Assembly (NCBI GenBank): GCA_044326545.1
Contig: JBIRBM010000005.1
Location: forward strand, 13,457 to 77,456
Reading direction: 5' to 3'
Length of the DNA: 64,000 nucleotides
From: Parachlamydiaceae bacterium
GTDB taxonomy: Bacteria > Chlamydiota > Chlamydiia > Chlamydiales > Parachlamydiaceae
Every line of letters begins with the position of its first letter. The first letter of the stretch is position 1. A program made the position numbers and the translations under genes. The notes under the pieces were generated by a model, which worked only from the letters and a program-made list of their open reading frames with translations, was not told where the DNA came from and made no database searches. Positions 11,041 to 62,338 of the stretch are shown here, piece by piece.

Positions 11041-11215
11041 TCGTTCTTTACGATTCACTCTCCTTAGAATCTGTTCAGAATCTTTGATCCGATGATTTGT
11101 TTGCTAAAAGCCGCGATCAGGGATTTATAGGAGCAAAGGATTGTGATCAAAGATTCTGAACAGGTCCTTACGCAACTGAAGTGCGATGTGGATTTAAGCC
11201 AAAGCCTCGGGGAAA
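11041..11215. repeat. Family A repeat split by a family B insertion (A15 halves at 11041-11063 and 11171-11215)
   Basis: Joining the flanks gives ...GATTCACTCTCCTTA|CGCAACTGAAGTGCGATGTGGATTTAAGCCAAAGCCTCGG, which reads as a family A left half. Confidence 0.55.
11064..11170. mobile_element. Family B MITE-like element (B1, 107 bp), nested in a family A copy
   Basis: TTAGAATCTGTTCAGAATCTTTGATCCGATGATTTG...GTGATCAAAGATTCTGAACAGGTCCTTA. The terminal inverted repeats exceed 20 bp, with TTA on both flanks. Confidence 0.8.
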
Positions 11216-11353
11216 ATAAGAAGAGAGGGTCTCAATCTCTCAATCTTATGTGAATTGGAATTATATTGGTTTAAACTCCTGGATATGGTATCAAGGTGTG
11301 TAGGTGTTGAGACATCAAAAGTTAGATTATTCAATATTTATTCTCAGGTGTAT

Positions 11354-11620: not shown

Positions 11621-11789
11621 TTAGAGCCTATTCACAATCTTTTATCAGATAATTTGTCTGTTAAAATGCCCTATAAGCTCACAAAAAATTTTCGCAATAA
11701 TTAAACAAGATTGGAAAAAAATTTTGTGAGTTTATGGGGCATCTATGGCAGCAAAACATCCTCACGATCTGTATGCAATAGGTTCTAAG
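11621..11789. mobile_element. Family B MITE-like element, long form (B2, about 170 bp)
   Basis: TTAGAGCCTATTCACAATCTTTTATCAGATAA...CTCACAAAAAATTTTCGCAATAATTAAA...TTTTGTGAGTTTATGGGGC...GCAATAGGTTCTAAG. Confidence 0.75.
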
Positions 11790-33567: not shown

Positions 33568-33721
33568 TTAAGAACCTGTTTAAAATATTCGATCTGATAA
33601 TTTGTGTGCTAAAATTTGCGATAAACCGGTAAAATTTTTTTGCAATCTTAAAAACTTTGCCGGTTCATCGTGTGTTTATAGCAATAAAGCACTCTGATGA
33701 TAGATTTTAAACAGGCTCTAA
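33568..33721. mobile_element. Family B MITE-like element, long form (B7, about 154 bp)
   Basis: TTAAGAACCTGTTTAAAATATTCGATCTGATAATTTGTGTGCTAAAATTTGCGATAAACCGG...CCGGTTCATCGTGTGTTTATAGCAATAAAGCACTCTGATGATAGATTTTAAACAGGCTCTAA. Confidence 0.75.
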
Positions 33722-34857: not shown

Positions 34858-34906
34858 TAAGAACCTGTTCAGAATCTTTGATCCAATGATTCTAAACAGG
34901 TTCTAA
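34858..34906. mobile_element. Family B short form (B8), with TAA on both flanks
   Basis: TAA|GAACCTGTTCAGAATCTTTGATCCAATGATTCTAAACAGGTTC|TAA. Confidence 0.85.
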
Positions 34907-54898: not shown

Positions 54899-55063
54899 AT
54901 TAGACTTCTTCGGAAACTTCATTGACTTGCTAAAACCGCCATTTTTGGCATCTTTTTTGTAAAATTTTTCGACCGTATGTACGCATACGCTCTCAACATT
55001 TTCAAAACAATCTGCTCAAAAAGGGCAATTTTTTCAAGCAAAGCAAGTTTCTCAAGAAGTCTA
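54899..55063. mobile_element. Family C MITE-like element, long form (C3, about 163 bp)
   Basis: Left arm TAGACTTCTTCGGAAACTTCATTGACTTGCTAAAA; right arm TTTTCAAGCAAAGCAAGTTTCTCAAGAAGTCTA. Shares the core GCCATTTTTGGCATCTTTTT with C1. Confidence 0.8.
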
Positions 55064-61679: not shown

Positions 61680-61740
61680 ACTCACCTTACGCACCAAGAT
61701 TGCGATTTGGGTTGAAGCCAAAGCTCTCTTGGTGCGTAAG
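61680..61740. repeat. Family A repeat, complete (A11)
   Basis: ACTCACCTTACGCACCAAGATTGCGATTTGGGTTGAAGCCAAAGCTCTCTTGGTGCGTAAG, then a family B arm. Confidence 0.8.
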
Positions 61741-61761
61741 AACCTGTTCAAAATCTTTCTG
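61737..61761. repeat. Family B left arm (B16)
   Basis: TAAGAACCTGTTCAAAATCTTTCTG. Supplies the stop and last codons of the 61748-62338 gene. Confidence 0.6.
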
Positions 61762-62338
61762 AAAACTCAATGGAGTCTAAAAAACGGGCATAAACATCGT
61801 GATCAAATTCGGTGTCCGACGCTATGTAAAAAGCTGTATATAGGGTTTTATCAGTCATTTGAGCGATGCCCTCCAATCTTTTCAAGGTGTGCTGATCGAA
61901 GAAGGTAAATTGAAAGGAACCGGTATCTTTTTCTTCTTGGGATTGAGTGAATTGAAAATCATAGGTTTGATGATTTTTGAATATCGAGGGATTAAAAAAG
62001 AAATAAGGAGCTAAAATGGTTTCAAAAAAGACTCTGAGAGACTCTTTTTGTAATCCCGATTGGTGAAAGGTCGCAGAGGTAAAACAGCTCAAAGCGAAAA
62101 GTCCATTTGATGTTGGGGTAGAATAAAGACGTAACTGCCCTTTGGGAGGAGTGTTTTGAAATGGGGTGTCGATATTCATCTCAATAGGGTGGTGCGGAAG
62201 CTTCGCTCGCAGGCCGCTTTCCCGATCTACGAAGCTGACCCACTCAAATGAAAGAGGGGAGTGTGAATGATTGGCCATAAGACCTTTATTGAAAAAAAAT
62301 GATAGCCCTAATATAAGAATTCCTGAATACGTTTTCAT
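61748..62338 (-). CDS. Secreted hypothetical protein
   Basis: Signal-peptide-like MKTYSGILILGLSFFFNKGLMA. No family recognised. The last codons and stop lie in a family B repeat arm. Confidence 0.5.
   Translation of the reverse strand: MKTYSGILILGLSFFFNKGLMANHSHSPLSFEWVSFVDRESGLRAKLPHHPIEMNIDTPFQNTPPKGQLRLYSTPTSNGLFALSCFTSATFHQSGLQKESLRVFFETILAPYFFFNPSIFKNHQTYDFQFTQSQEEKDTGSFQFTFFDQHTLKRLEGIAQMTDKTLYTAFYIASDTEFDHDVYARFLDSIEFSERF

Follow-up and report, generated by a model that had tools for sequence, protein, structure and literature searches.

Several accepted families of non-autonomous DNA transposons (MITEs) are orphans. The Correia or NEMIS elements of Neisseria are orphan MITEs approximately 100-160 bp long whose terminal repeats measure about 26 bp; they occur as internal-deletion size variants and are present in hundreds of intergenic copies. 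Correia elements duplicate TA. We know of no transposase for the Correia / NEMIS elements. The repeat family described here, family B, resembles these elements in size, terminal repeats, internal-deletion variants, intergenic copies and the lack of a known transposase. It differs from Correia elements in that TWA and not TA is duplicated, in its unrelated sequence and in belonging to a different phylum.

Pangu and bacterial IS5 elements duplicate ANT, PIF/Harbinger elements duplicate TWA and NuwaII duplicates C-TNA-G (PMC4482050). Family B shares with Tourist-like MITEs and PIF/Harbinger (PHIS) elements a 3-bp TWA duplication, in a C...G context like that of NuwaII (PMC4482050), as well as short terminal inverted repeats, non-coding sequence, high copy number and paralogous empty sites. 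It differs in its bacterial host and in that no transposase with matching ends was found. The ANT footprint of bacterial IS5 elements (PMC4482050) is here the footprint of another family, family C, and not of B. REP sequences are defined as 20-40 nt long with a GTAG or CGTC head (PMC3733652). REP and BIME sequences are, like B, intergenic, hairpin-forming and abundant, but REPs have no target duplication, whereas B makes one.

The window analysed here is a stretch of 64,000 nucleotides, positions 13457-77456 of contig C13, from a genome (G000) of 2.49 Mb in 105 contigs with 40% G+C. Outside this genome, the best match of the window's glmS is in a genome of uncultured Parachlamydiaceae (67% protein identity), which supports the first-pass guess of Chlamydiae. 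The locus of interest consists of a copy of family B within a copy of another repeat, family A, and a second B copy lies close by. The features, in window coordinates, are as follows.

11053-11063, plus strand: outer part of the left terminal repeat of family A, ATTCACTCTCC, 5' of the insertion point
11064-11066, unstranded: left copy of the duplicated target TTA, by direct reading
11067-11167, unstranded: family B MITE of 101 bp, non-coding, an internal-deletion derivative of the 161-bp full-length form
11067-11089, plus strand: left terminal inverted repeat of B, GAATCTGTTCAGAATCTTTGATC
11145-11167, minus strand: right terminal inverted repeat of B, reading inward GGACCTGTTCAGAATCTTTGATC, 21/23 against the left repeat
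11168-11170, unstranded: right copy of the duplicated target TTA, by direct reading
11171-11227, plus strand: remainder of family A, CGCAACTGAAGTGCGATGTGGATTTAAGCCAAAGCCTCGGGG, followed by a degenerate right arm, AAAATAAGAAGAGAG, placed by local alignments to uninterrupted A copies
11629-11785, unstranded: second B copy, 157 bp, diverged and approximately 75% identical to the consensus, with TTA on the left and TAA on the right (discordant)

We suggest that B is very probably a non-autonomous DNA transposon, a MITE, which was moved in trans with duplication of TWA and which is nested here in an older copy of family A; an enzyme of the IS5/PHIS kind is what we infer as its mobiliser. In brief, a transposase acting in trans would have made cuts staggered by 3 nt at a TWA target, with a preference for C-TWA-G, and repair would have duplicated the TWA. 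The B copy at 11067-11167 would have entered the TTA of an older family A terminal repeat (CTCACC-TTA-CGCA), giving a nested insertion. The enzyme would be an IS5 / PIF-Harbinger-type (PHIS) DDE transposase whose gene is presumably absent from the genome now, so that B would be a decaying fossil family here.

At the site, the sequence reads ...ACGATTCACTCTCC, TTA, GAATCTGTTCAGAATCTTTGATC...GATCAAAGATTCTGAACAGGTCC, TTA, CGCAACTGAAGTGCGATGTGGATTTAAGCCAAAGCC..., and TTA is thus present on each side of the insert, as the first-pass annotation had noted. One of these two copies (11064-11066 or 11168-11170) is the TTA that the family A terminus had before the insertion. Both B termini were detected by nhmmer, with E values of 1.2e-7 and 1.2e-8. 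The 107 bp (11064-11170) first given for the insert has both TTA copies counted in, and the element proper is 101 bp. The earlier description gave its termini more than 20 bp of perfect match; GAATCTGTTCAGAATCTTTGATC and GGACCTGTTCAGAATCTTTGATC, the latter being the reverse complement of 11145-11167, instead have mismatches at the outer positions 2 and 4 and are perfect only over the inner 19. Alignment with 161-bp full-length copies shows that this copy lacks the central approximately 60 bp of the palindrome. The surrounding family A element at 11053-11227 is complete, with a degenerate right arm (approximately 11171-11227). The insertion sits in a 271-bp gap between two divergent ORFs. Neither of these ORFs has a Pfam match, and no promoter-like site was found in the gap. 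The second B copy is located 460 bp downstream of the first. Its hairpin (11656-11745) gave only sub-threshold, microRNA-like chance matches in Rfam.

The terminal 23-mer of B, at no more than 3 mismatches, is found 6 times in the window versus 0 times in 100 shuffles. At the same threshold there are 121 B termini in the genome, and a reversed-pattern control gave 0. The full-length form is a near-palindrome of 161 bp with terminal inverted repeats of approximately 23 bp, consensus GAACCTGTTCAGAATCTTTGATC, and is without coding capacity. Copies are 72-93% identical to their own consensus. Shorter size classes of 150, 141, 101, 73-77, 55, 41-43 and 29 bp also occur. All forms (29-161 bp) are non-coding and below the approximately 300 bp of bacterial MITEs. 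The terminal inverted repeats are likewise those of a bacterial MITE, at 23 bp in the consensus and 21/23 in the window copy. Fifty-three of 67 B elements lie entirely outside ORFs of at least 120 aa, although such ORFs make up 82% of the genome. The smallest form, a 29-bp mini B (GAACCTGTTCAGAATCTTTGATCAGGTTC), is present in 15 copies, for example at C37:40823-40851 and C90:5270-5298, and keeps approximately 7 bp of one end. Most of the mini copies have concordant TWA flanks. They may stem from transposition or from recurrent deletion.

Since TAA is the reverse complement of TTA, the flanks discriminate between two cases: on one strand, a target duplication should leave identical triplets left and right of the element, whereas an extension of the terminal repeats should give TTA...TAA. 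We scored 67 paired B elements, whose ends were set by the terminal 10-mer alone with hidden-Markov support for at least one end. TTA or TAA stands on both sides of 43 of these: 19 are TTA/TTA, 18 are TAA/TAA and 6 are discordant. The duplication is thus direct in 37 of 43 informative elements (binomial p = 1.6e-6). In a stricter set, 19 elements were concordant and 2 were discordant. The TAA/TAA flanks reported earlier for two other copies in the window are correct (34858-34860 with 34904-34906, and 33569-33571 with 33719-33721). In 24 of the 67 elements TWA is missing from one or both sides. Decay explains these and the 6 discordant ones, which is an explanation and not a proof.

When B elements are oriented by their internal asymmetry (GATCCGATGA end versus GATCACGATG end), 8 have TAA and 8 have TTA, so the triplet is not an intrinsic, asymmetric end of the element. 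The outer flanks (40 nt) are on average 33% identical, with a maximum of 60%, and the sites of B are therefore independent. B thus has what is seen in MITEs, a target duplication of fixed length at independent copies. A second genome (G128) behaves alike: among its 14 elements with flanks, 11 are concordant (7 TAA, 4 TTA), 1 is discordant and 2 are one base off, and all the flanks are unrelated. The flank test that had been proposed for the genomic B copies thus came out in favour of a duplication. The first-pass reading of a 3-bp T(A/T)A target duplication, and of B as a MITE rather than a structural REP only, is supported by this concordance, its independence of orientation and its recurrence in the second genome.

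Intact copies of the repeated family A serve as paralogous empty sites. Removal of B together with one TWA restored the terminal 13-mer of family A, CTCACCTTACGCA, in exact register and with no more than 3 mismatches in 11 of 67 elements. In the controls, where both TWA copies were kept or the register was shifted by 3 nt, the 13-mer was restored in 1, 0 and 1 cases. TWA sites located in the A 13-mer are 0.6% of all those in the genome. For the window copy, the junction of ...CACTCTCCTTA with CGCAACTGAAG... is spanned by gap-free alignments to intact A copies on contigs C39, C28, C64, C77 and C93 (for example C39:3982, GATTCACTCACCTTACGCACTGGGAATACGATTTGGGCTGAAGCCAAAGCCTCGG). The joined terminus, CTCTCCTTACGCA, has 1 mismatch to CTCACCTTACGCA. 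The earlier prediction that excision of B and one TTA yields a normal left half of family A therefore holds, and the nested insertion of B in A is confirmed. At this locus an orthologous empty allele would be 104 bp shorter and would read CACTCTCCTTACGCAACTG.

Empty sites, which had been suggested as a check in related strains or species, are thus present for B as paralogous A sites. Comparison across species gave no clean empty site. Metagenome contig L053 has a B copy upstream of a gene whose G000 orthologue is without B, but at 74% coding identity the intergenic DNA is unalignable. In the nearest congener the flanking gene is only 56% identical at the protein level and the downstream gene is without an orthologous neighbour; this divergence makes intergenic alignment impossible. 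An exact look-up of the flanking protein found no record, and hence no close strain.

Many B termini are found in only 2 of 401 Chlamydiota genomes, the present one (121) and G128 (78). G128 belongs to the same family and a different genus, and a G128-specific pattern gave 92 B termini in it. The congeners of both genomes have 0-1 B termini, and a third genome (G016) has a single B copy of 151 bp. Near-identical 161-bp B elements are also located at the ends of Ga0172380 metagenome contigs, with TTA/TTA where both ends are present. The coding DNA beside B on these contigs is only 74% identical to G000. An exact B terminus was absent from the genome-contig collection searched, and the B consensus had no match in a plasmid collection. 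A mobile element that spreads horizontally produces this kind of patchy, lineage-specific amplification in local bursts, and the pattern argues for horizontal spread among amoeba symbionts.

Family C offers a comparison within the same genome. Its copies in the window are located as follows.

4265-4348: family C copy
53998 onward: family C copy
54902-55062: family C copy

Approximately 9.4 kb past the end of the window, at C13:86891-87837, the genome encodes a 947-bp IS5-family element with HTH_Tnp_4 and DDE_Tnp_4 domains (NF033581), the ends AGACTTCTTTCGAAACT and the flanks AAT/AAT. The family C MITEs (161 bp) carry the same ends, with approximately 127 termini at no more than 2 mismatches, and the copies are 95% identical to their own consensus. 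Their flanks are concordant in 45 of 52 cases (ATT 25, AAT 18, ACT 2), which is an ANT duplication. Family C and the 947-bp element are a textbook MITE-IS pair. Since the flank method recovers this known kind of pair in the same genome, it serves as a positive control for B. The transposase frame of the 947-bp element is broken at an A9 run (C13:87340-87350), and with one A removed the frame would be continuous. Either a slippage mutation or programmed transcriptional slippage may lie behind this.

B is like C in its full length, long-palindrome architecture, 3-bp duplication and intergenic location. The ends of the two families are alike at 12/17 positions with one gap in a hand alignment, and the internal sequence TTGCTAAAACC is common to both. 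They differ in the duplicated triplet (TWA in B, ANT in C), in identity to the consensus (72-93% in B, 95% in C) and in that the genome houses an element sharing the ends of C, whereas none was found for B. Alignment of the two consensus sequences gave no significant link between B and C: the global z was 2.9, and 44 of 1000 shuffles attained the local score. Full-length copies of both families measure exactly 161 bp. A shared preference for approximately 160 bp may reflect a constraint on bringing the two ends together.

For B itself no autonomous element with the same ends, which the first-pass annotation had proposed to look for, was found in either of the two B-rich genomes. There is no transposase gene between B termini in G000, in G128 or in the metagenome contigs. 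Where B termini converge at a distance of 400-4000 bp, the genes between them are ordinary ones and not transposases, and no IS-type multi-copy repeat of more than 400 bp with B ends was found in the genome. The other transposases of G000 (IS903-like, IS4-like, IS982-like and IS5-type fragments) were rejected as partners, as none has B ends, and none of the transposase genes of G128 has them either. The sole DDE_Tnp_4 gene of G000 is that of the 947-bp element, whose ends differ from B. The other IS5-type genes in the genome are fragments. Two of these, at C22:2168-2404 and C23:3192-3383, are degenerate C-terminal remnants of IS5-type transposases with the RW.VE..FAW motif; the one on C22 is followed by GAGTTTGTC..., next to TAA. 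These remnants could be relics of the type of element that once moved B, although their ends do not match it. B is thus an orphan MITE.

The flanks of B follow the profile Y-Y-T-W-A, element, T-W-A-G-R, which is a preferred C-TWA-G context. Conservation covers every position of the triplet, left and right: of 67 elements, 61-62 have the T, 61-64 the W and 60-61 the A. Compared with the footprints in PMC4482050, this 3-bp duplication is of the type made by IS5 / PIF-Harbinger (PHIS) elements. The footprint and its context point to an IS5 / PIF-Harbinger-type enzyme, and we suggest that B was moved by a related DDE transposase which has since been lost. A derivation from IS630 / Tc1-mariner, with TA duplicated, does not match the conservation of all three flank positions. 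Of the two kinds of partner put forward earlier, an IS5-type element thus fits the TWA footprint and an IS630-type element fits it less well.

It is unlikely, though by no means negligible, that B is a MITE whose mobiliser was not of the IS5 / PIF-Harbinger kind, but another TWA- or TA-duplicating family (ISAzo13, IS630/Tc1-mariner) or an unclassified enzyme. That no IS5-type element with B ends was found speaks for such a mobiliser, whereas the likeness of the B ends to those of the resident IS5-family element (12/17, hand alignment) speaks against it. A duplication of TA alone would leave unexplained why 61 of 67 elements keep a T at the outer position -3, and likewise why 61 of 67 keep an A at +3. 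For ISAzo13, its transposase (PF07592) gave no match in G000, G128 or G016, a weak argument, as control genomes likewise had no match.

We consider it improbable that B is an orphan MITE lineage that is still moving within and between Parachlamydiaceae genomes without a cognate element. It could then be cross-mobilised by a transposase with different ends, for example that of the resident Harbinger-like IS5-family element with its 12/17 matching end positions (hand alignment), or it could derive from a eukaryote-type PIF/Harbinger element acquired in an amoebal host. The TWA footprint of B is of the eukaryotic PIF/Harbinger type and not the ANT reported for bacterial IS5.

Very improbable, and largely refuted, is the idea that B is a REP-like structural palindrome which was spread by recombination or by a RAYT-type enzyme, with TTA/TAA as part of its consensus and the present locus as a mosaic. 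B does resemble such sequences: as single-stranded DNA the 101-bp copy folds into one hairpin (-23.4 kcal/mol, z -6.6), B is intergenic, it often adjoins pieces of family A and no transposase is known for it. A triplet internal to a palindrome should however be inverted (TTA...TAA), whereas that of B is direct in 37 of 43 elements irrespective of orientation, and family A is restored precisely upon excision and not in shifted registers. Compared with the 20-40-nt REPs with a GTAG or CGTC head (PMC3733652), B at 161 bp has 23-bp terminal repeats, lacks a head of this kind and is flanked by a direct TWA repeat.

There is hardly any room for the reading that A with B inside was copied ready-made to 11053-11227 as a composite from elsewhere, with no insertion at the site: B does abut family A ends at many places, with the flanks ACTCACCTTA or GGTGCGTAA, but the outer flanks of the window locus are unique, with a top identity of 60%, and the 11 cases of B in A comprise B forms of 29, 41, 80, 100, 101, 151 and 161 bp in both A arms, both orientations and different A sequences, and are therefore separate events.

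A trans-mobilised MITE with a TWA target thus being our preferred reading of B, the nature of its host repeat is of interest. Family A has 283 termini in G000 at no more than 2 mismatches and is also present in several other genera of Parachlamydiaceae. In a congener (G003), family A ends (ACTCACCTTACGCAA) bound multi-copy elements of approximately 1155 bp, three of which were fetched (L155 307-1463 on G003:C3, L156 and L157). The single copy read from end to end has a gene for an IS701-family transposase (NF049921, E 2e-99), and duplications of 5-6 bp flank two of the three. Most likely, then, the family A hairpin is itself MITE-like, and it probably derives from IS701 and is not a plain structural palindrome. 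With A itself MITE-like, the locus would be a MITE inside a MITE. The family A copy at 61680-61812, which had been the reference for the first reading of the locus, is itself interrupted: its right arm GGTGCG-TAA runs directly into a B terminus, GAACCTGTTCAAAATCTTTC. The B copy abutting it is truncated on the far side.

Nesting and divergence give relative ages for the three families. A is older than B, since B is nested in A. B is older than C, which follows from the greater divergence of B and from a C copy inside a degenerate B end on contig C10.

The genome thus has at least three such families: A with IS701-type ends, B as an orphan with TWA, and C of the IS5 type with ANT. Together they document DNA transposition, both active and fossil, in a lineage of obligate intracellular bacteria. 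The literature searched holds no description of MITEs in Chlamydiae, and B is apparently undescribed for this group there. With B a new family joins a well-known kind of element, and the understanding of how MITEs work is unchanged by these findings.

MITEs can supply hairpins, terminators and promoters. They also break short-read assemblies, and here contigs end approximately 128 nt into repeats. The MITE families are the cause of the fragmentation of this assembly, and the breakpoints are probably at the k-mer length of the assembler. Many contigs break off approximately 128-150 nt into a terminus of family A or C, which lies within approximately 120-170 nt of the contig end; these are C2, C4, C14, C28, C36, C37, C38, C44, C63, C69, C77, C84, C88, C90, C99 and C102.
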